Source of the DNA: a virus
Lineage: Duplodnaviria; Heunggongvirae; Uroviricota; Caudoviricetes
DNA: 10,603 bases
IMG/VR virus record: IMGVR_UViG_2571042056_000002
Direction: 5' to 3' (one strand)
Shown here: positions 1 to 10,603 of the stretch, piece after piece
Numbering within the stretch: the first letter of the stretch is position 1
How the letters are laid out: each line of letters begins with the position of its first letter
Program-made: the position numbers and the translations under genes
Notes under the pieces: generated by a model
Database searches by the model: none
What the model was told of the DNA's origin: nothing
What the model saw: the letters and a program-made list of their open reading frames with translations, nothing else

Positions 1-32
1 GATCTCGATGGAAGTTATTGAGTGATCTCCTT

Positions 33-830
33 TCATGAAAATACGCAAAAATTCGGGATCCAGAAAATCTCATCGACGTACAGGTCGCCGTTATGGCTCT
101 GTGCGGTGTTGGAGTTGGTGCCGAGAAAAATCAGTTTTGCACCGTTATTGCCCAGGACAATCGGGTCACCGGTCAGGTCAACGTCAACCAGCCGGGCAAA
201 GGCGATGATGTATTCGCGGAACACATACGCCTGCGTTTTACTGGCCGACAGAAAAATCTGGTTATGGCCGGTTTTCAGGGCGCGCAGCAGCGCCTCGCGG
301 GAAAAATAAAACGTCGCGCCAATCTGGCGGGATTTCAGGATATCGCGGATGCGGTGCTCAAGCCCGGCGCGATACCAGTGCAGCTGATATTCGAAAGACT
401 GCTCAAAGAAAATCTGCTCCAGCTTTTCGATGGCCTCGTCACTGAAAAAATTCTTTTTCGGTTTGCGCCGCCCGCCTTTGTTGCGGTTAGCGACGTTCGG
501 ATTAAGGTCTGCCTCGTTGCCGGTCTGACTGTAACGGTTTACCCGTGCCAGTCGTTCAATCTGGCGTCCCAGCAGGTCAATTTCCTTGAAGTCACCGCCG
601 GTTTTCTGCGGTTTGATGATGAGCTGGGTCAGCCGCGCTTCCAGACTCATTTCGACACGGCTGATGGGGGCAACGCTGTCCCAGCCGTCGCGCTGTTTCC
701 AGCTCTGCACCGTCGGGCGTTTCATCTGCAACATGGCGGCAATCTGCGGCACGGAAAACCCCTGCCAGTACAGCAGCGCCGCCTGACGACGCGGGTCGTG
801 TAAAAGAGTGGTGTCTGTGGTGATGGTCAT
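33..830 (-). CDS. P: Terminase ATPase (large) subunit GpP, N-terminal 265 codons only; reading frame closed by TGA at 33-35 (possible truncation or frameshift)
   Basis: Minus-strand ORF 33..860; likely start is the internal ATG at 828-830 (MTITTDTTLLHDPRRQAALLYWQGF...) preceded by GAGG. The N-terminus matches my recollection of P2 gpP. Position is divergent from O as in P2. Full-length P homologues are about 590 aa, so the gene should extend far beyond the left edge, but an in-frame TGA occurs at 33-35 and a second in-frame TAA at 15-17. Confidence 0.8.
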   Translation of the reverse strand: MTITTDTTLLHDPRRQAALLYWQGFSVPQIAAMLQMKRPTVQSWKQRDGWDSVAPISRVEMSLEARLTQLIIKPQKTGGDFKEIDLLGRQIERLARVNRYSQTGNEADLNPNVANRNKGGRRKPKKNFFSDEAIEKLEQIFFEQSFEYQLHWYRAGLEHRIRDILKSRQIGATFYFSREALLRALKTGHNQIFLSASKTQAYVFREYIIAFARLVDVDLTGDPIVLGNNGAKLIFLGTNSNTAQSHNGDLYVDEIFWIPNFCVFS

Positions 831-1003
831 GAATACCTCGCCGTGATGAATACACGGCAAGGCTACTGAGTCGCGCCCCGCGATTCGCTAAGGTGCTGTT
901 GTGTCAGTGATAAGCCATCCGGGACTGATGGCGGAGGATGCGCATCGTCGGGAAACTGATGCCGACATGTGACTCCTCTAATCACTATTCAGGACTCCTG
1001 ACA
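831..1003. promoter_or_regulatory. Divergent P/O intergenic region; expected site of late promoters for the leftward P(Q) and rightward O-operon transcripts
   Basis: 173-bp non-coding gap between divergently oriented P (start 830, minus) and O (start 1004, plus). In P2 this spacer holds activator (Ogr)-dependent late promoters. Only imperfect matches to the TGT-N12-ACA dyad are present: TGT-N12-CCA at 900-917 and TGT-N12-CAC at 968-985. Confidence 0.45.
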
Positions 1004-1858
1004 ATGGCAAAAAAAGTCTCAAAATTCTTTCGTATCGGCGTTGAGGGTGACACCTGTGACGGGCGTGTCATCAGTGCGCAGGATATTCAGGAAATGGCCG
1101 AAACCTTTGACCCGCGTGTCTATGGTTGCCGCATTAACCTGGAACATCTGCGCGGCATCCTGCCTGACGGTATTTTTAAGCGTTATGGCGATGTGGCCGA
1201 ACTGAAGGCCGAAAAGATTGACGATGATTCGGCGCTGAAAGGCAAATGGGCGCTGTTTGCGAAAATCACCCCGACCGATGACCTTATCGCGATGAACAAG
1301 GCCGCGCAGAAGGTCTACACCTCAATGGAAATTCAGCCGAACTTTGCCAACACCGGCAAATGTTATCTGGTGGGACTGGCCGTCACCGATGACCCGGCAA
1401 GCCTCGGTACGGAATACCTGGAATTCTGCCGCACTGCAAAACACAACCCCCTGAACCGCTTCAAATTAAGCCCTGAAAACCTGATTTCAGTGGCAACGCC
1501 CGTTGAGCTGGAATTTGAAGACCTGCCTGAAACCGTGTTCACCGCCCTGACCGAAAAGGTGAAGTCCATTTTTGGCCGCAAACAGGCCAGCGATGACGCC
1601 CGCCTGAATGACGTGCATGAAGCGGTGACCGCTGTTGCTGAACATGTGCAGGAAAAACTGAGCGCCACTGAGCAGCGCCTCGCTGAGATGGAAAACGCCT
1701 TTTCCGCACTTAAGCAGGAGGTGACTGACAGGGCGGATGAAACCAGCCAGGCATTCACCCGCCTGAAAAACAGTCTCGACAGCACCGAAAGTCTGACCCA
1801 GCAGCGCCGCAGCAAGGCCACCGGCGGTGGCGGTGACGCCCTGATGACGAACTGCTGA
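1004..1858 (+). CDS. O: Capsid scaffolding protein GpO
   Basis: ORF 938..1858; start chosen at ATG 1004 (MAKKVSKFFRIGVEGD...) with AGGA upstream, giving 284 aa, the P2 gpO length. Gly-rich C-terminus (ATGGGGDALMTNC). Position is immediately upstream of N. Confidence 0.88.
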   Translation: MAKKVSKFFRIGVEGDTCDGRVISAQDIQEMAETFDPRVYGCRINLEHLRGILPDGIFKRYGDVAELKAEKIDDDSALKGKWALFAKITPTDDLIAMNKAAQKVYTSMEIQPNFANTGKCYLVGLAVTDDPASLGTEYLEFCRTAKHNPLNRFKLSPENLISVATPVELEFEDLPETVFTALTEKVKSIFGRKQASDDARLNDVHEAVTAVAEHVQEKLSATEQRLAEMENAFSALKQEVTDRADETSQAFTRLKNSLDSTESLTQQRRSKATGGGGDALMTNC

Positions 1859-1916
1859 CCGGCGTCAGCCAGTCCGGGAAAACCTTCACGATTAACCCTT
1901 AATTTCAGGAAAAACT

Positions 1917-2990
1917 ATGCGCCAGGAAACCCGCTTTAAATTTAATGCCTACCTGTCCCGTGTTGCCGAACTGAACGGCATCGACGCCGGTGATGTGTCG
2001 AAAAAATTCACCGTTGAACCGTCGGTTACCCAGACCCTGATGAACACCATGCAGGAGTCCTCTGATTTTCTGACCCGCATCAACATTGTGCCGGTCAGCG
2101 AAATGAAAGGGGAAAAAATTGGTATCGGTGTCACCGGCTCCATCGCCAGCACCACCGACACCGCCGGTGGCACCGAGCGTCAGCCGAAGGACTTCTCGAA
2201 GCTGGCGTCTAACAAGTACGAATGCGACCAGATTAACTTCGATTTTTATATCCGCTACAAAACGCTTGACCTGTGGGCGCGTTATCAGGATTTCCAGCTC
2301 CGTATCCGTAACGCCATTATCAAACGCCAGTCCCTTGATTTCATCATGGCCGGTTTTAACGGCGTGAAGCGTGCCGAAACCTCTGACCGCAGCAGCAATC
2401 CGATGTTGCAGGATGTGGCGGTTGGCTGGCTGCAGAAATACCGCAATGAAGCCCCGACGCGCGTGATGAGCAAGGTCACTGACGAGGAAGGTCACACGAC
2501 CTCTGAGGTCATCCGCGTGGGTAAGGGTGGTGATTATGCCAGCCTTGATGCACTGGTGATGGATGCGACCAACAACCTGATTGAACCGTGGTATCAGGAA
2601 GACCCTGACCTTGTGGTGATTGTGGGTCGTCAGCTACTGGCGGACAAGTATTTCCCCATCGTTAACAAGGAGCAGGACAACAGCGAAATGCTGGCCGCTG
2701 ACGTCATCATCAGCCAGAAACGCATCGGTAACCTGCCGGCGGTACGCGTCCCGTACTTCCCGGCGGATGCGATGCTCATCACGAAGCTGGAAAACCTGTC
2801 CATCTACTACATGGATGACAGCCATCGCCGCGTGATTGTGGAAAACCCGAAACTCGACCGCGTGGAGAACTACGAGTCAATGAACATTGATTACGTGGTG
2901 GAAGACTACGCCGCCGGTTGTCTGGTGGAAAAAATCAAGGTTGGTGATTTCTCCACACCGGCTAAGGCGACCGCAGAGCCGGGAGCGTAA
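1917..2990 (+). CDS. N: Major capsid protein GpN
   Basis: 357-aa ORF, the same length as P2 gpN, and the sequence matches my recollection of it (MRQETRFKFNAYLSRVAELNGIDAGD...). AGGAAAAACT precedes the ATG. Canonical position between O and M. Confidence 0.9.
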   Translation: MRQETRFKFNAYLSRVAELNGIDAGDVSKKFTVEPSVTQTLMNTMQESSDFLTRINIVPVSEMKGEKIGIGVTGSIASTTDTAGGTERQPKDFSKLASNKYECDQINFDFYIRYKTLDLWARYQDFQLRIRNAIIKRQSLDFIMAGFNGVKRAETSDRSSNPMLQDVAVGWLQKYRNEAPTRVMSKVTDEEGHTTSEVIRVGKGGDYASLDALVMDATNNLIEPWYQEDPDLVVIVGRQLLADKYFPIVNKEQDNSEMLAADVIISQKRIGNLPAVRVPYFPADAMLITKLENLSIYYMDDSHRRVIVENPKLDRVENYESMNIDYVVEDYAAGCLVEKIKVGDFSTPAKATAEPGA

Positions 2991-2993
2991 CCG

Positions 2994-3737
2994 ATGACGA
3001 GTCCCGCACAGCGCCACATGATGCGGGTCTCGGCAGCGATGACCGCGCAGCGGGAAGCCGCCCCGCTGCGACATGCAACTGTCTATGAGCAGATGCTGGT
3101 TAAGCTCGCCGCAGACCAGCGCACACTGAAAGCGATTTATTCAAAAGAGCTGAAGGCCGCGAAAAAACGCGAACTGCTGCCGTTCTGGTTGCCGTGGGTG
3201 AACGGCGTGCTGGAGCAGGGCAAAGGTGCACAGGATGACATTCTGATGACGGTCATGCTGTGGCGTCTGGATACCGGCGATATTGCCGGTGCGCTGGAGA
3301 TTGCCCGTTATGCCCTGAAGTACGGTCTGACCATGCCGGGTAAACACCGCCGTACCCCGCCGTACATGTTCACCGAGGAGGTAGCGCTTGCGGCCATGCG
3401 CGCTCACGCTGCCGGTGAGTCTGTGGATACCCGCCTGCTGACGGAGACCCTTGAACTGACCGCCACGGCTGACATGCCTGATGAAGTGCGCGCAAAGCTG
3501 CACAAAATTACCGGTCTGTTTCTGCGTGACGGTGGTGATGCCGCCGGTGCGCTGGCTCACCTGCAACGTGCGACACAGCTCGACTGTCAGGCAGGCGTCA
3601 AAAAAGAGATTGAACGACTGGAGCGGGAGCTGAAACCGAAGCCGGAGCCGCAGCCCAAAGCGGCCACCCGAGCCCCGCGTAAGACCCGGAGCGTGACACC
3701 GGCAAAACGTGGACGCCCGAAAAAGAAAGCCAGTTAA
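2994..3737 (+). CDS. M: Terminase endonuclease (small) subunit GpM
   Basis: 247-aa ORF, the P2 gpM length, starting 4 nt after the N stop. Basic Lys/Arg/Pro-rich C-terminus (PKAATRAPRKTRSVTPAKRGRPKKKAS) is typical of a DNA-binding terminase subunit. Confidence 0.85.
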   Translation: MTSPAQRHMMRVSAAMTAQREAAPLRHATVYEQMLVKLAADQRTLKAIYSKELKAAKKRELLPFWLPWVNGVLEQGKGAQDDILMTVMLWRLDTGDIAGALEIARYALKYGLTMPGKHRRTPPYMFTEEVALAAMRAHAAGESVDTRLLTETLELTATADMPDEVRAKLHKITGLFLRDGGDAAGALAHLQRATQLDCQAGVKKEIERLERELKPKPEPQPKAATRAPRKTRSVTPAKRGRPKKKAS

Positions 3738-3836
3738 CAACCGAATGCGCCCCGCGCCAGGGCGGCACGCCGGTCAGTGAGGGTGAATCACCTGACACTG
3801 CACCGGCGTCCACCGCCCGACTTTTCAGAGGTAGTC

Positions 3837-4346
3837 ATGATGACGCTGATTATTCCGCGAAAGGAGGCTCCCGTGTCCGGTGAGGGTACGGTGGTCATCC
3901 CGCAACCGGCAGGCGACGAGCCGGTGATTAAAAACACGTTCTTTTTTCCCGATATCGACCCGAAGCGCGTCCGGGAACGTATGCGCCTTGAGCAGACCGT
4001 CGCCCCCGCCCGTCTGCGTGAGGCCATCAAGTCAGGCATGGCGGAGACGAATGCGGAGCTGTACGAGTACCGCGAACAGAAAATTGCCGCCGGTTTTACG
4101 CGTCTGGCGGACGTCCCGGCGGACGACATCGACGGTGAAAGCATCAAAGTTTTTTACTACGAGCGCGCCGTGTGTGCGATGGCGACCGCGTCGCTTTATG
4201 AACGTTATCGCGGCGTGGATGCCAGTGCCAAAGGCGACAAGAAGGCCGACAGCATTGACAGCACCATTGATGAGCTGTGGCGGGATATGCGCTGGGCAGT
4301 GGCGCGCATCCAGGACAAGCCGCGCTGCATCGTGAGTCAAATCTGA
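3837..4346 (+). CDS. L: Head completion/stabilisation protein GpL
   Basis: ORF 3777..4346; start chosen at ATGATG 3837 (MMTLIIPRKEAPVSGEG...) with GAGG upstream, giving 169 aa, the P2 gpL length. Its TGA stop overlaps the X start (ATGA). Confidence 0.85.
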   Translation: MMTLIIPRKEAPVSGEGTVVIPQPAGDEPVIKNTFFFPDIDPKRVRERMRLEQTVAPARLREAIKSGMAETNAELYEYREQKIAAGFTRLADVPADDIDGESIKVFYYERAVCAMATASLYERYRGVDASAKGDKKADSIDSTIDELWRDMRWAVARIQDKPRCIVSQI

Positions 4347-4549
4347 TGAAGACCTTTGCGCTACAGGGCGACACGCTCGACGCCATTTGTGTCCGGTATT
4401 ACGGGCGCACTGAGGGCGTGGTTGAGACCGTGCTCGCCGCAAATCCGGGACTGGCTGAACTGGGTGCGGTGCTGCCACACGGCACCGCTGTCGAACTGCC
4501 CGACGTTCAGACCGCGCCCGTGGCTGAAACTGTCAATCTGTGGGAGTAA
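4346..4549 (+). CDS. X: Tail protein GpX (LysM-like domain)
   Basis: ORF 4277..4549; start at ATG 4346 gives 67 aa (MKTFALQGDTLDAICVRYYGRTEGVVETVLAANPGL...), the P2 gpX length. Sequence pattern is LysM-like. Start overlaps the L stop. Confidence 0.85.
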   Translation: MKTFALQGDTLDAICVRYYGRTEGVVETVLAANPGLAELGAVLPHGTAVELPDVQTAPVAETVNLWE

Positions 4550-4552
4550 CGC

Positions 4553-4834
4553 ATGACAGCAGAAGAAAAAAGCGTCCTGTCGCTTTTCATGATTGGGGTG
4601 CTGATTGTTGTCGGCAAGGTGCTTGCCGGTGGTGAACCCATCACCCCGCGTCTGTTTATCGGGCGCATGTTGCTCGGTGGTTTTGTCTCGATGGTTGCCG
4701 GTGTTGTTCTGGTGCAGTTTCCTGACCTGTCACTGCCTGCGGTGTGCGGTATCGGCTCCATGCTGGGTATCGCCGGTTATCAGGTGATTGAGATTGCCAT
4801 TCAGCGCCGCTTTAAGGGCAGGGGGAAACAGTAA
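4553..4834 (+). CDS. Y: Holin GpY
   Basis: 93-aa ORF with about three hydrophobic transmembrane segments and a charged C-terminus (QRRFKGRGKQ). First gene of the lysis cassette; its stop overlaps the K start (TAATG). Confidence 0.88.
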   Translation: MTAEEKSVLSLFMIGVLIVVGKVLAGGEPITPRLFIGRMLLGGFVSMVAGVVLVQFPDLSLPAVCGIGSMLGIAGYQVIEIAIQRRFKGRGKQ

Positions 4835-5331
4835 TGCCGGTTATTAACACGCATCAGAATATCGCCGCCTTTCTCGACATGCTGGCCGTGTCCGAAGGGA
4901 CGGCAAACCATCCGCTGACGAAAAACCGGGGCTATGACGTGATAGTCACCGGACTGGACGGGAAGCCGGAAATTTTCACCGATTACAGTGACCACCCGTT
5001 CGCACATGGCCGACCGGCGAAGGTGTTTAACCGTCGCGGTGAAAAATCCACGGCCTCCGGTCGCTATCAGCAGCTTTACCTGTTCTGGCCGCATTACCGC
5101 AAACAGCTTGCCCTGCCGGATTTCAGTCCGTTGTCACAGGACAGACTTGCCATTCAGTTGATCCGCGAACGCGGTGCACTGGATGACATCCGGGCGGGAC
5201 GCATTGAGCGAGCCATTTCACGCTGTCGCAATATCTGGGCGTCCCTGCCGGGTGCCGGTTACGGTCAGCGTGAGCATTCACTGGAAAAACTGGTCACCGT
5301 CTGGCGTACCGCTGGCGGCGTACCGGCTTAA
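4834..5331 (+). CDS. K: Endolysin GpK (lambda R-like lytic transglycosylase / phage lysozyme family)
   Basis: 165-aa ORF. Motifs AFLDMLAVSEGT, YDVIV, FTDYSDHP, SGRYQ and IWASLPGAGYGQREH match what I recall of lambda R endolysin and P2 gpK. Confidence 0.9.
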   Translation: MPVINTHQNIAAFLDMLAVSEGTANHPLTKNRGYDVIVTGLDGKPEIFTDYSDHPFAHGRPAKVFNRRGEKSTASGRYQQLYLFWPHYRKQLALPDFSPLSQDRLAIQLIRERGALDDIRAGRIERAISRCRNIWASLPGAGYGQREHSLEKLVTVWRTAGGVPA

Positions 5332-5345
5332 ACGGAGTAAGCACC

Positions 5346-5771
5346 ATGAAGAAATTATCCCTTTCACTGATGCTGAACGTGTCGCTGGCGCTGATGCTGG
5401 CACTGTCCCTGATTTACCCGCATAGCGTGGCCGTCAATTTTGTCGCCGCCTGGGCGATTCTGGCGACGGTTATCTGTGTGGTTGCCGGTGGTGTCGGCGT
5501 GTATGCCACTGAGTATGTGCTGGAACGCTACGGGCGGGAGCTGCCGCCGGAATCGCTGGCCGTGAAGATTGTCGCGTCGCTGTTTTTGCAGCCGGTGCCG
5601 TGGCGCAGACGGGCGGCGGCTCTGGTGGTGATGGTGGCGGCGTTTATCTCGCTGGTCGCTGCCGGGTGGATTTTTACCGCGCTGATTTACCTCGTGGCGT
5701 CGGTGTTCTTCCGGTTGATACGCACGGCCTGTCGTCAGCGTTTTGAGGGGCGGGAACCATGTCAAAGCTGA
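5346..5771 (+). CDS. lysA: Lysis-timing membrane protein LysA (putative antiholin)
   Basis: 141-aa ORF with about four hydrophobic helices, GGAG upstream of the ATG, same length and position as P2 lysA. Its 3' end overlaps the lysB start by 13 nt. Confidence 0.8.
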   Translation: MKKLSLSLMLNVSLALMLALSLIYPHSVAVNFVAAWAILATVICVVAGGVGVYATEYVLERYGRELPPESLAVKIVASLFLQPVPWRRRAAALVVMVAAFISLVAAGWIFTALIYLVASVFFRLIRTACRQRFEGREPCQS

Positions 5772-6184
5772 TGATTGTGCTGGTTGTGTTGTTATCACTG
5801 GCGGTGGCCGGTCTGTTTCTGGCGAAGCATGAAAACGCCAGCCTGCGCACCTCGCTGGACAGGGCGAACAACGTCGCCAACGGGCAGCAGACGACCATCA
5901 CCATGCTGAAAAATCAGCTTCATGTTGCCCTCACCAGAGCAGACAAAAACGAGCTGGCGCAGGTGGCACTGCGTCAGGAACTGGAGAACGCGGCGAAGCG
6001 TGAAGCACAGCGCGAGAAAACCATCACGAGGTTACTGAATGAAAACGAAGATTTTCGCCGCTGGTACGGCGCTGGCCTGCCTGATGCTGTGCGCCGGTTG
6101 CACCAGCGCCCGGCCTGCACCGACGCCAGTGATTGTCGCCAGCGCCTGCCCGAAAGTGAGCCTTTGCCCGATGCCGGGCAGTGA
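5759..6184 (+). CDS. lysB: Inner-membrane spanin component LysB (Rz-like)
   Basis: 141-aa ORF with an N-terminal transmembrane helix (LMIVLVVLLSLAVAGLFLA) followed by a charged, likely coiled-coil region. Canonical P2 position. Confidence 0.85.
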   Translation: MSKLMIVLVVLLSLAVAGLFLAKHENASLRTSLDRANNVANGQQTTITMLKNQLHVALTRADKNELAQVALRQELENAAKREAQREKTITRLLNENEDFRRWYGAGLPDAVRRLHQRPACTDASDCRQRLPESEPLPDAGQ

Positions 6185-6329
6185 CCCGGAGACGAACGGC
6201 GATTTAAGTGCCGATATCCGACAGCTTGAGAACGCGCTGGCACGCTGTGCCAGCCAGGTAAAAATGATTAAACACTGTCAGGACGAAAACGATGCTCAAA
6301 CCCGACAGCCTGCGCAGGGCGCTGACTGA
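6039..6329 (+). CDS. lysC: Outer-membrane lipoprotein spanin component LysC (Rz1-like), in an alternative frame overlapping lysB and R
   Basis: 96-aa ORF in a different frame from lysB with GAGG upstream of the ATG. Signal peptide and lipobox-like LMLCAGC, then a Pro-rich mature region. Starts inside lysB and ends inside R, as in P2. Confidence 0.8.
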   Translation: MKTKIFAAGTALACLMLCAGCTSARPAPTPVIVASACPKVSLCPMPGSDPETNGDLSADIRQLENALARCASQVKMIKHCQDENDAQTRQPAQGAD

Positions 6330-6759
6330 TGCCGTCACGGTGCTGAAAACCAGTCCCGAGATGCTGCGGATATTCGTTGATAACGGGAGTATTGCCTCCA
6401 CGCTGGCGACGTCGTTGTCATTCGAAAAGCGTTACACGCTCAATGTGATTGTGACCGACTTTACCGGTGATTTTGACCTGCTCATCGTGCCGGTGCTGGC
6501 GTGGCTGCGGGAAAATCAGCCCGACATCATGACCACCGACGCAGGCCAGAAAAAGGGCTTCACGTTTTATGCAGACATCAACAATGACAGCAGCTTTGAT
6601 ATCAGCATCAGCCTGATGCTGACCGAGCGCACGCTGGTCAGTGAGGTGGACGGCGCACTGCATGTTAAGAATATCCCGGAACCCACGCCGCCGGAGCCGG
6701 TCACCCGCCCGATGGAGCTTTATATCAATGGCGAACTGGTGAGCAAGTGGGATGAATGA
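6292..6759 (+). CDS. R: Tail completion protein GpR
   Basis: 155-aa ORF, the P2 gpR length, in canonical position. Overlaps the S start by 8 nt. Confidence 0.85.
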   Translation: MLKPDSLRRALTDAVTVLKTSPEMLRIFVDNGSIASTLATSLSFEKRYTLNVIVTDFTGDFDLLIVPVLAWLRENQPDIMTTDAGQKKGFTFYADINNDSSFDISISLMLTERTLVSEVDGALHVKNIPEPTPPEPVTRPMELYINGELVSKWDE

Positions 6760-7204
6760 GTTTAAGCGTTTTGAAGACCGGCTGACCGGACTGATTGAAT
6801 CGCTGTCACCGTCAGGGCGTCGGCGACTGAGCGCCGAACTGGCGAAACGTCTGCGGCAGAGTCAGCAGCGTCGGGTGATGGCTCAGAAAGCCCCGGACGG
6901 CACACCCTACGCGCCACGCCAGCAGCAGAGCGCCAGAAAAAAGACTGGTCGTGTTAAGCGAAAAATGTTTGCGAAACTTATCACCAGTCGTTTTTTGCAT
7001 ATCCGCGCCAGCCCGGAACAGGCATCAATGGAATTTTACGGCGGGAAGTCACCGAAAATCGCCAGCGTGCATCAGTTCGGTCTGTCGGAAGAAAACCGGA
7101 AAGACGGTAAGAAAATTGATTATCCGGCGCGTCCTCTGCTCGGTTTTACCGGTGAGGATGTGCAGATGATTGAAGAGATTATTCTGGCTCACCTCGACCG
7201 TTAG
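6752..7204 (+). CDS. S: Tail completion protein GpS
   Basis: 150-aa ORF, the P2 gpS length; last gene before the S-V spacer. Confidence 0.85.
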   Translation: MNEFKRFEDRLTGLIESLSPSGRRRLSAELAKRLRQSQQRRVMAQKAPDGTPYAPRQQQSARKKTGRVKRKMFAKLITSRFLHIRASPEQASMEFYGGKSPKIASVHQFGLSEENRKDGKKIDYPARPLLGFTGEDVQMIEEIILAHLDR

Positions 7205-7270
7205 TTGTGCCATTCCCGACACCTCATCGTCACATTGCCGCCGGTATGACCCGGCGGCATCCTTCCCGTT
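7205..7270 (+). promoter_or_regulatory. S-V intergenic spacer; candidate late promoter (PV) region and/or weak terminator
   Basis: 66-bp gap between operons. It contains the near-dyad TGTGCCATTCCCGACACC (TGT-N10-ACA, also readable as TGT-N12-ACC) at 7206-7223 and a GC-rich hairpin at 7236-7259. P2 has a late promoter in front of V. Confidence 0.4.
7236..7259 (+). other. Perfect 9-bp GC-rich stem-loop (TGCCGCCGG - TATGAC - CCGGCGGCA), 12 nt upstream of the V start codon
   Basis: Read directly from the sequence: arms 7236-7244 and 7251-7259 are exact reverse complements with a 6-nt loop. The downstream tract TCCTTCCCGTT is only moderately T-rich, so assignment as an intrinsic terminator is uncertain. 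Confidence 0.35.
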
Positions 7271-7906
7271 ATGAACACTCTCGCAAATATCCAGGAACTC
7301 GCGCGCGCACTGCGCAACATGATTCGCACCGGCCTTGTCGTCGAAACCGACCTTAACGCCGGTCGCTGCCGTGTGCAGACCGGCGGCATGTGCACCGACT
7401 GGCTTCAGTGGCTGACCCATCGTGCCGGTCGTTCGCGCACATGGTGGGCACCTTCCGTGGGGGAACAGGTGCTGATTCTGGCCGTGGGCGGTGAACTTGA
7501 CACGGCGTTTGTTCTGCCGGGGATTTATTCCGGCGATAACCCCGCGCCGTCTGCGTCGGCGGATGCCCTGCATATCCGTTTCCCTGACGGGGCGGTGATT
7601 GAGTATGAACCTGAAACCAGTGCACTGACGGTAAGCGGAATTAAAACAGCCAACGTGACGGCTTCTGATTCTGTTACTGCCGCGGTGCCGGTGGTCATGG
7701 TGAAAGCATCAACCCGCGTCACCCTGGACACACCGGAGGTGGTCTGCACCAACAGGCTGATTACCGGCACGCTGGAAGTGCAGAAGGGCGGGACGATGCG
7801 CGGCAACATTGAACACACCGGCGGTGAACTCTCATCAAACGGTAAGGTACTGCACACCCATAAACACCCCGGCGACAGCGGCGGCACAACCGGGAGTCCT
7901 CTATGA
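7271..7906 (+). CDS. V: Baseplate central spike protein GpV
   Basis: 211-aa ORF, the P2 gpV length. C-terminal His-rich tip (VLHTHKHPGDSGG) resembles the HxH metal-binding apex I recall for P2 gpV. No clear Shine-Dalgarno sequence; ATG directly follows the hairpin. Confidence 0.88.
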   Translation: MNTLANIQELARALRNMIRTGLVVETDLNAGRCRVQTGGMCTDWLQWLTHRAGRSRTWWAPSVGEQVLILAVGGELDTAFVLPGIYSGDNPAPSASADALHIRFPDGAVIEYEPETSALTVSGIKTANVTASDSVTAAVPVVMVKASTRVTLDTPEVVCTNRLITGTLEVQKGGTMRGNIEHTGGELSSNGKVLHTHKHPGDSGGTTGSPL

Positions 7907-8250
7907 CAGCGCGTTATCTCGGAATGAATCGCAGTGATGGCCTGACGGTCACTGACCTCGAGCATATCAGCCAGAGTATCGGCGATATCCTGCGCACACC
8001 AGTCGGCTCACGGGTGATGCGTCGTGATTATGGCTCGTTGCTGGCGTCAATGATTGACCAGCCGCAGACCCCGGCGCTTGAGTTGCAGATTAAGGTCGCC
8101 TGTTACATGGCGGTGCTGAAATGGGAACCCCGCGTCACCCTGTCATCCGTCACCACTGAGCGCAGTTTTGACGGGCGAATGACGGTCACGTTAACCGGCC
8201 AGCACAACGACACCGGCCAGCCACTTTCGTTAACCATCCCTGTGAGTTGA
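7903..8250 (+). CDS. W: Baseplate wedge protein GpW (T4 gp25-like)
   Basis: 115-aa ORF, the P2 gpW length. Start overlaps the V stop (ATGA). Confidence 0.85.
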   Translation: MTARYLGMNRSDGLTVTDLEHISQSIGDILRTPVGSRVMRRDYGSLLASMIDQPQTPALELQIKVACYMAVLKWEPRVTLSSVTTERSFDGRMTVTLTGQHNDTGQPLSLTIPVS

Positions 8251-8254
8251 AACC

Positions 8255-9163
8255 ATGCCGATTATCGACCTGAACCAGCTACCCGCACCGGATGTGGTCG
8301 AGGAGCTGGACTTTGAAACCATTCTTGCCGAACGCAAGGCGACACTGATTTCCCTTTACCCGGAAGACCAGCAGGAGGCAGTCGCCCGTACCCTGACGCT
8401 GGAATCTGAGCCTCTCGTCAAACTGCTGGAGGAAAATGCTTATCGTGAGCTTATCTGGCGTCAGCGTGTGAATGAGGCCGCACGGGCGGTGATGCTGGCC
8501 TGTGCTGCCGGTAATGACCTTGATGTGATTGGTGCCAATTACAACACCACGCGTCTGACTATCACCCCGGCAGATGATTCGACCATCCCGCCGACACCGG
8601 CAGTGATGGAGTCTGACACCGATTATCGTCTGCGTATTCAGCAGGCGTTTGAGGGCTTAAGCGTCGCCGGGTCGGTGGGAGCCTATCAGTATCATGGTCG
8701 CAGTGCTGACGGGCGTGTCGCGGATATCTCTGTCACCAGTCCGTCTCCTGCCTGTGTCACCATCTCTGTGCTGTCACGTGAAAATAACGGCGTCGCATCC
8801 GAAGACCTGCTGTCTGTGGTGCGTAACGCCCTTAATGGCGAGGACGTCAGGCCGGTTGCCGACCGCGTGACCGTGCAGTCTGCCGCCATCGTTGAATACC
8901 AGATAAACGCCACGCTTTACCTTTACCCTGGTCCCGAAAGCGAACCCATCCGCGCGGCCGCCGTGAAAAAACTGGAAGCGTATATCACGGCACAGCACCG
9001 GCTGGGGCGCGACATCCGTCTGTCTGCCATTTATGCCGCTTTGCATGTGGAAGGCGTGCAGCGTGTCGAACTGGCTGCACCGCTGGCCGACATCGTGCTC
9101 AACAATACGCAGGCGTCTTTCTGTACCGAATACAGCGTCGTGACCGGAGGCTCGGATGAGTGA
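8255..9163 (+). CDS. J: Baseplate protein GpJ (T4 gp6-like)
   Basis: 302-aa ORF, the P2 gpJ length, in canonical position after W. Confidence 0.85.
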   Translation: MPIIDLNQLPAPDVVEELDFETILAERKATLISLYPEDQQEAVARTLTLESEPLVKLLEENAYRELIWRQRVNEAARAVMLACAAGNDLDVIGANYNTTRLTITPADDSTIPPTPAVMESDTDYRLRIQQAFEGLSVAGSVGAYQYHGRSADGRVADISVTSPSPACVTISVLSRENNGVASEDLLSVVRNALNGEDVRPVADRVTVQSAAIVEYQINATLYLYPGPESEPIRAAAVKKLEAYITAQHRLGRDIRLSAIYAALHVEGVQRVELAAPLADIVLNNTQASFCTEYSVVTGGSDE

Positions 9164-9767
9164 TTCGCGACTGCTGCCGACCGGCTCATCACCGCTTGAA
9201 GTTGCCGCCGCAAAAGCCTGTGCGGAAATTGAAAAAACGCCGGTCAGTATTCGTGAGCTGTGGAACCCGGATACCTGCCCGGCAAATCTGCTGCCGTGGC
9301 TGGCGTGGTCATTTTCGGTTGACCGCTGGGATGATAAGTGGCCGGAAGCGACAAAACGCGCTGTTATCCGCGATGCGTATTTCATTCACTGCCATAAGGG
9401 CACTATAGGAGCAATCCGGCGTGTGGTGGAGCCGCTCGGCTATCTGATTGAGGTGAGGGAGTGGTGGCAGCTCAACGAGGAACCGGGGACGTTCCGCATC
9501 GTTGTTGGCGTGCTTGAGCAGGGTATTACCGAGGAAATGTATCAGGAGCTGGAGCGTCTCGTTGCTGATGCAAAACCTGCAAGCCGCCATCTGACGGGAC
9601 TGGCTATCAGTTTAAGTACAACCGGCAACATTTTTGCCGGTGCGGGATGCTATCACGGCGACGCCCTGACGGTTTATCCCTACACCCCGGAGGCCATTAT
9701 TGTCGGAGGGGATTATTTCCCGGCCTCGGCCATTCATTTAATTGATAACCTGAGAGTAAACGCATGA
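9156..9767 (+). CDS. I: Baseplate protein GpI
   Basis: 203-aa ORF overlapping the J stop by 8 nt, with an N-terminus typical of gpI (MSDSRLLPTGSSPLEVAAAKACAEIEKTPVSIRELWNPD...). It is longer than the 176 aa I recall for P2 gpI. Confidence 0.8.
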   Translation: MSDSRLLPTGSSPLEVAAAKACAEIEKTPVSIRELWNPDTCPANLLPWLAWSFSVDRWDDKWPEATKRAVIRDAYFIHCHKGTIGAIRRVVEPLGYLIEVREWWQLNEEPGTFRIVVGVLEQGITEEMYQELERLVADAKPASRHLTGLAISLSTTGNIFAGAGCYHGDALTVYPYTPEAIIVGGDYFPASAIHLIDNLRVNA

Positions 9768-10603
9768 CAGTGAAATACTACGCCATTCTGACTAATCAGG
9801 GCGCAGCACGGCTGGCTAACGCGACGATGCTCGGCAGTAAGCTGAATCTGACGCAAATGGCCGTTGGTGATGCGAATGGTGTCTTGCCGACACCAGACCC
9901 GGCACAGACAAAACTGATTAATCAGAAACGCATTGCACCGCTGAATCTTCTGAGTGTTGACCCGAACAACCAGAGCCAGATTATTGCGGAGCAAATCATC
10001 CCTGAGAACGAGGGCGGATTCTGGATCCGTGAGATTGGGCTTTATGATGATGAAGGCGTACTCATTGCGGTGGCGAACTGCCCGGAAACGTACAAACCGC
10101 AGTTACAGGAAGGCAGCGGTCGTACCCAGACTATCCGCATGATTCTGGTTGTCACGAATATCGAAGCCATCACGCTGAAAATCGACCCGTCGGTGGTACT
10201 GGCGACCCGTAAATATGTGGATGATGAAGTCCTGGAATTAAGGCTGTATGTGGATGACCAGATGAGAAACCACATTGCCGCACAGGATCCTCATACCCAG
10301 TATGCACAGAAACATAATCCGACATTTACCGGAGAACCAAAAGCGCCGACGCCTGCCGCAGGAAATAACACCACGCGGATTGCGACCACTGAGTTTGTTC
10401 AGGCCGCTATTACCGCTCTGATTAACGGCGCGCCAGCCACGCTGGACACACTGAAAGAAATTGCCGCAGCCATTAACAATGACCCGAAATTCAGCACCAC
10501 CATTAACAATGCGCTGTCAGGTAAGCAGCCACTGGATGAGACGCTGACTCATTTGAGCGGAAAGGATGTTGCCGGCCTTCTCGCATACCTTGGTTTGGGA
10601 GAA
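9764..10603 (+). CDS. H: Tail fibre protein GpH, 5' partial (280 codons, continues beyond window end)
   Basis: My own translation from ATG 9764, which overlaps the I stop (ATGA), is open to the window end, so it is absent from the supplied complete-ORF track. Product: MTVKYYAILTNQGAARLANATMLGSKLNLTQMAVGDANG...EGGFWIREIGLYDDEGVLIAVANCPETYKP...TRIATTEFVQAAITALINGAPATLDTLKEIAAAINNDPKFSTTINNALSGKQP. It carries the conserved tail-fibre N-terminal and repeat motifs I recall from P2 gpH, but the sequence is clearly different. Confidence 0.8.
   Translation, partial: MTVKYYAILTNQGAARLANATMLGSKLNLTQMAVGDANGVLPTPDPAQTKLINQKRIAPLNLLSVDPNNQSQIIAEQIIPENEGGFWIREIGLYDDEGVLIAVANCPETYKPQLQEGSGRTQTIRMILVVTNIEAITLKIDPSVVLATRKYVDDEVLELRLYVDDQMRNHIAAQDPHTQYAQKHNPTFTGEPKAPTPAAGNNTTRIATTEFVQAAITALINGAPATLDTLKEIAAAINNDPKFSTTINNALSGKQPLDETLTHLSGKDVAGLLAYLGLGE

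Follow-up and report, generated by a model that had tools for sequence, protein, structure and literature searches.

The terminase gene P of an Escherichia coli P2-like (Peduovirus) prophage has almost certainly been interrupted by the insertion sequence ISEc12, and the contig on which we found it breaks off within this repeated element, which is seen here by its ends only. The window, the whole stretch of 10,603 nucleotides that we analyzed, is the complete draft contig AYJX01000113.1 of assembly GCA_000511425.1. Transposition of ISEc12, 2581 bp long in the reference copy, would have separated codon 261 of P from codon 262 and duplicated the 5 bp ATTTT; the element would point the same way as the gene. 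From the sequence, this appears to have been a simple insertion after codon 261, just past a Walker B-like motif. It also appears to have been a very recent one, because the late genes are full length, window positions 48 to 10603 are 99.3% identical to intact prophages, and P can be reconstructed exactly from the two sides of the element. The coordinates of the features are collected in Table 1.

Homology to P ends at base 48

The original prediction described a minus-strand P frame that was really cut short near the left edge of the window, and translation reproduced it. The frame opens at ATG 828-830, runs for 265 codons, and closes at TGA 33-35, with a second in-frame stop, TAA 15-17, five codons past the first. 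As had also been stated, both alternative minus frames are open across 1-60, and the first letters of the window are GATC. The A5 run, which had been placed at 46-50, lies instead at 47-51, where it is formed by the last A of the IS together with the AAAA of P. The expectation that P should be about 590 residues long was borne out by the relatives: intact P has 590 aa, and all long contigs with an identical neighboring gene O carry a P of this length. Residues 1 to 261 of the window product are identical to those of intact P, and the DNA of the P part is 100% identical to that of strain B27. The foreign part consists of CVFS and the stops only. Chance does not explain the truncation: all of the product but the last four codons is intact P. 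We also agree with the earlier argument that two stops speak against a single nonsense change. Both stops lie inside the IS end.

We compared window positions 1 to 1000 by megablast with 50,697 phage records and 5,426 complete E. coli genomes. This comparison returned hundreds of P2-like matches at 95 to 100% identity, and the query start was base 48 in every alignment listed. The same limit of P homology is seen in about 1500 intact relatives and 107 phage records among the alignments listed, and the alignments from a search with the whole window likewise begin at base 48. The alignment of the left end with P that had been proposed earlier therefore gives an exact answer: homology is lost at base 48. 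In a four-way alignment, the sequence from base 48 rightward is that of P in its intact form and differs from Eco_70239 at 2 of 83 nt. From base 47 leftward, it has no relation to P and agrees at every position with two independent ISEc12 ends. Neither contiguous cover of window 1-1000 nor a P junction like that of the window was found in any of the 5426 complete E. coli genomes. The exact 28- to 36-nt junction string is absent from the GTDB species representatives, IMG/VR, and the JGI metagenomes.

The first cause to be considered in the original prediction was a frameshift at the A run. Such a frameshift, or a homopolymer sequencing error at the same place, would let P go on in another frame, and the A5 run and the two open minus frames across 1-60 are in its favor. 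However, neither of the open frames resembles the continuation of P, QVLRKVASG (QVLRKVASGMASQ), and when all three minus frames were translated, as had been suggested, none of them carried on P. Homology does not continue in a shifted frame; nucleotide identity to P falls from about 100% to background at base 48, and bases 1 to 47 are an exact ISEc12 terminus. The contig with the other side of the insertion, described below, also speaks against a frameshift. We find this explanation hardly credible.

Bases 1 to 47 are the end of an ISEc12 copy

The first 47 bases of the window are identical, at 47 of 47 positions, to annotated ISEc12 in E. coli CD306 (locus L001, 3001-3047) and in Eco_70239. 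At base 47 the IS end reads ...ATACGCA, which is 5'-TGCGTAT... on the minus strand. The match in CD306 abuts an istA/istB pair annotated as "IS21-like element ISEc12 family." The CD306 copy as a whole spans L001 467-3047 (2581 bp), has the ends TGCGTAT...ATACGCA, and is flanked by an 8-bp duplication. Both 47-nt ends of the copy in P, the one in the window and the one on the sister contig, match this 2581-bp element at 47 of 47 positions and have terminal inverted repeats of the form 5'-TG...CA-3'. In reference copies of ISEc12 whose ends are the same, istA and istB are annotated. Judged by its ends alone, ISEc12 would lie to the left of the window, with istA and istB on the minus strand and in the same direction as P.

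ISEc12 is present in many copies. Used alone as a query, window positions 1 to 60 have 5028 matches spread over 1695 of the 5426 complete E. coli genomes, with a median of 3 and a maximum of 14 in a genome, and 758 more on plasmids. The copies sit at unrelated sites: the 41 IMG/VR loci have mostly different flanks, a few of which recur. Among these 41 loci and the other loci fetched, the ISEc12 duplications are 5 to 8 bp long, and the flanks and duplications show no obvious target consensus. An IS insertion was not among the candidate causes in the original prediction; the cause to which these matches point is ISEc12.

Reduced forms of the element were also seen. At L001 4150-4211, CD306 has a 62-bp miniature ISEc12 in which the IRL and IRR tips stand head to tail and overlap in the middle, with a CCAGG duplication; it looks like a MITE-type derivative. 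Plasmid pAPEC-O1-ColBM (L002, ~2980-3047) has a lone IRL end of ~65 nt between traQ and trbA, and this lone match recurs in many other plasmids.

A second contig carries the other side of the insertion

To find the second junction, we predicted the hybrid products of the IS leader and P for several duplication lengths and looked up these ten proteins exactly. The hybrids used the C-terminal 329 residues of P, a stretch shared without change by 7 of the 9 relatives that we compared. The hybrid made of DLHRCYSPISFTVIRNF and P residues 262 to 590 is WP_025693460.1 (346 aa), encoded at nt 1-1042 of AYJX01000045.1 (L055; 35,522 bp), a contig of the same assembly, GCA_000511425.1. This sister contig starts with 47 nt of the istB-proximal (IRR) end of ISEc12, followed by ATTTT and then by CAGGTACTG, that is, by P from codon 262 on. 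Its ATTTT is the reverse complement of window 48-52, which gives a 5-bp target duplication with one copy on each side of the element. Dropping one copy restores intact P exactly, and the rejoined gene is identical to the intact P of strain B27 at 1773 of 1773 nt. A duplication of 8 bp, as in the CD306 copy, had been assumed at first and was ruled out by the 5 bp on the sister contig. A pattern for the second junction with variable duplication length had no match in IMG/VR, the GTDB representatives, or the JGI metagenomes.

The original prediction advised a look farther left for Q and cos, and both are on AYJX01000045.1, beyond the IS. Downstream of P lies an intact 344-aa portal gene Q, and the P2 cos 19-mer is found without a mismatch at L055 2246-2264 (expected by chance, 0.01). 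Past cos there are two cargo genes, then A, B, and cox, which we assigned by Pfam family match to P2. A 103-aa ORF in the position of repressor gene C follows, then the integrase and a host radical-SAM gene. Together, the two contigs have Q-P divergent from O-N-M-L, with cos beyond Q. Nothing has been deleted on the sister-contig side of the prophage.

These data bear on the proposal that the prophage is decaying and that its P frame ends where a deletion or rearrangement took place. In that case, an IS-mediated or other deletion or rearrangement would have removed the 3' part of P, Q, and cos and left a remnant. Within the window alone, whatever lies left of the junction is invisible. However, the sister contig of the same assembly has the other IS end with the matching 5-bp duplication. 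It also has P codons 262 to 590 without a mismatch to the intact allele, as well as Q, cos, the early genes, and int. On the window side, all 15 complete late genes are intact, and we saw no other decay. The part of the proposal that stands is the junction itself, which is one with a mobile element; the deletion does not stand, as the 3' part of P, Q, and cos are present across the IS, and we hold it to be very improbable. It is also very unlikely that the two contigs come from different prophages in one cell, because the 5-bp duplication is exact and the reconstruction of P has no mismatch in 1773 nt.

The contigs break inside the repeat

An insertion of ISEc12 also explains why the assembly breaks in P. 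The element is multi-copy and a short-read assembler is unable to cross it, so AYJX01000113.1 would stop 47 nt into one IS end, and only the final 47 nt of the other end would be on AYJX01000045.1. Only two contigs on record encode the truncated protein, AYJX01000113.1 and Logan contig ERR8574480_299 (L005). The Logan contig shares the P::ISEc12 junction, orientation included, and its 265-aa product is identical; it ends 29 nt into the IS, at window base 19. The GATC with which the window begins is coincidental, because this independent assembly stops at base 19 instead; the ISEc12 ends are rich in GATC.

Thus, the earlier suggestion of an assembly or cloning boundary was half right. There is an assembly break, and it lies inside the repeat; a GATC cloning site does not fit, since the other assembly stops at base 19. 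We also considered whether the junction itself could be an assembly chimera or a GATC cloning boundary, with the true P intact. A window that begins with GATC and ends in a repeat would be compatible with this, and misjoins occur at contig ends. However, a second read set yielded this junction in an independent assembly whose contig stops at base 19 and not at GATC, and bases 1 to 47 match the IS, not a vector. In addition, the reciprocal junction on the sister contig, with its target duplication, is a signature of transposition and not the product of a chimera. An artifact of this kind is exceedingly unlikely.

The two alleles with the P::ISEc12 junction are not the same. Aligned with window 19-10603, the Logan contig has 234 mismatches in 10585 aligned positions (2.2%), evenly spread and without gaps. 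The first difference is 25 nt from the IS, and the 8 differences in P are all synonymous. Over 48-2000, the window allele matches the intact B27 prophage at 100% identity; the Logan allele is 99.9% identical to the intact prophage of AMSCJX04. The same hybrid-protein lookup gave no match for the second junction of ERR8574480. The site between P codons 261 and 262 could be a recurrent ISEc12 target, with the same phosphodiester bond hit twice, but we regard this as doubtful. We lean toward one old insertion followed by replacement of the flank by recombination up to the IS boundary, because ISEc12 is without site specificity elsewhere.

The truncated product has half an ATPase domain and no nuclease domain

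Intact P has Pfam matches to Terminase_5 (residues 12-69), Terminase_6N (164-386), and Terminase_6C, the RNaseH-like nuclease (413-571). In the window product, Terminase_5 is found at 12-69 and Terminase_6N at 164-262, over profile positions 2-112 of 215, and there is no Terminase_6C. The window ORF therefore does not have the domain set of P2-like gpP (Terminase_5, Terminase_6N, and Terminase_6C in about 590 aa). It ends just past DLYVDE, a Walker B-like sequence, and codons 1 to 261 cover the HTH domain and, of the ATPase, the first half. The P of the window is a disrupted member of the gpP family and not a short variant.

A lineage in which the terminase ATPase is naturally about 265 aa long, for which the original prediction had left room, has nothing in its favor except the ORF itself. 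All of the long contigs with an identical gene O have a 590-aa P, and the window product halts midway through the Terminase_6N profile, without Terminase_6C. The cluster to which the 265-aa protein belongs has only assorted N-terminal fragments as members. A naturally short terminase is close to inconceivable here.

In the gene interrupted by ISEc12, the P frame would enter the IS end for four codons and then meet the IS-encoded stops. The 265-aa protein made from it would have the N-terminal HTH and the first ATPase half and would be without the remaining ATPase and the whole RNaseH-like nuclease domain. Half an ATPase domain without a nuclease does not translocate or cut DNA, and P is essential in P2 genetics. 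From this domain content and from P2 genetics, we infer that the prophage is no longer able to package DNA, in agreement with the original prediction for an element with this P gene.

The insertion may also affect the next gene. On the sister contig, Q comes directly after P in the same orientation and overlaps the P stop by one base. Late transcription from the P promoter would run into istA and istB. Because Q follows P in this way, its expression is probably reduced by polarity.

The rest of the prophage

Late genes O to I have the lengths of those in intact relatives and no internal stops. The P-O intergenic region presumably holds divergent late promoters, as in P2. Nothing informative came from scanning 1-1100 for promoters and terminators, and an Rfam scan of the window gave no match.

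Table 1. Features of the window (positions are those of the 10,603-nt stretch)
Feature	Position	Strand	Basis or remark
ISEc12 (IS21 family) terminal 47 nt, istA-proximal (left, IRL) end	1..47	-	47/47 identity
Second in-frame stop TAA, within the IS end	15..17	-	Translation
IS-encoded codons CVFS (36-47) and TGA (33-35), closing the hybrid ORF	33..47	-	Translation
Target-site duplication AAAAT (ATTTT in the P sense)	48..52	.	Second copy on AYJX01000045.1
P codons 1-261 (terminase large subunit)	48..830	-	Identical to intact 590-aa P
P-O intergenic region	831..1003	.	Intact, inside the 48-2000 stretch that is 100% identical to B27
Late genes O N M L X Y K lysA lysB/lysC R S V W J I, full length	1004..9767	+	Gene calls, Pfam

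The right contig edge, window 10578-10603 (TTCTCGCATACCTTGGTTTGGGAGAA), coincides exactly with an arm of an inverted repeat of 26 nt. The two arms of this repeat flank a 1.9-kb tail-fiber segment in Eco_70239 (L003 14531-14556 and 16455-16480). A recombinase gene lies at L003 19143-19715, ~2.7 kb beyond the repeat and past an ISEc12 copy. The repeat looks like a crossover site for a Din-type invertase. Both independent assemblies, AYJX01000113.1 and the Logan contig, end at the right edge within 1 nt. This suggests that both orientations of the tail-fiber segment occurred in the sequenced cultures, which would account for the right contig end.

The slot between cos and gene A holds cargo that varies among otherwise near-identical prophages (L055 2687-4275 versus L050, L052, and L054 700-3700). 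The window strain, B27, and Eco_70239 have a Lactamase_B/ComEC-like 361-aa gene and a 162-aa ORF. The cargo is an OLD-like TOPRIM/AAA ATPase in L054, a PDDEXK_GAPS4 protein with two unknowns in L052, and a DprA-like protein with a PRTase-like protein in L050. The slot looks like the known position of variable (defense) cargo in P2. Between tail genes S and V, relative L052 also has an extra 247-aa gene (13415-14158) that has no Pfam match and is encoded on the opposite strand; at this position the window (7205-7270) has a short spacer only.

Implications

Both the element and this kind of event are known, and the mechanism is not a new one; such an insertion is an ordinary way to disable a prophage. 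For annotation, the 265-aa ORF and the 346-aa WP_025693460.1 should be treated as two halves of one IS-disrupted pseudogene and not as short terminases. The prophage should be scored as packaging defective, though the other genes on both contigs are intact. A gene that runs into a contig edge may conceal the insertion of a mobile element. A pattern is visible in which ISEc12 disables P2-like prophages, by insertions in Q, O, and the tail-fiber region and, with the present case, in P.

Comparison with other ISEc12 insertions and with P2

ISEc12 splits tssM in E. coli ST131 clade C, where it made a 5-bp duplication and draft contigs are truncated (PMC10711316). The insertion in P shares with tssM::ISEc12 the element, its terminal sequences, the 5-bp duplication, and the two gene fragments flanking istA-istB (PMC10711316). 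It differs in its target, which here is a prophage terminase gene, and in the duplicated sequence, which is ATTTT here and ACTGC in tssM (PMC10711316).

Other P2-like prophages have ISEc12 insertions as well. In strain 22AR0010 (L047 226-3847), ISEc12 splits portal gene Q, and both halves are pseudogenes flanking the IS; as in the window strain, istA and istB there run in the same direction as P and Q. A second strain, CREC8, has an IS-end match at a different distance from P. IMG/VR locus L045 has ISEc12 in gene O, and its flank at 10786-10815 matches window 1093-1122. In Eco_70239 (L003 16673-18975), ISEc12 sits beside the tail-fiber invertible segment. The insertions in Q, in O, and in the tail-fiber region involve the same element and the same type of phage as the one in P, but the insertion points are different.

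Compared with P2 and the Peduovirus gpP family, the prophage has the same arrangement of Q-P divergent from O-N-M-L, and its cos 19-mer is identical to that of P2. In contrast to Peduovirus gpP, the P gene of the window is interrupted and encodes the HTH domain and half of the ATPase domain only.
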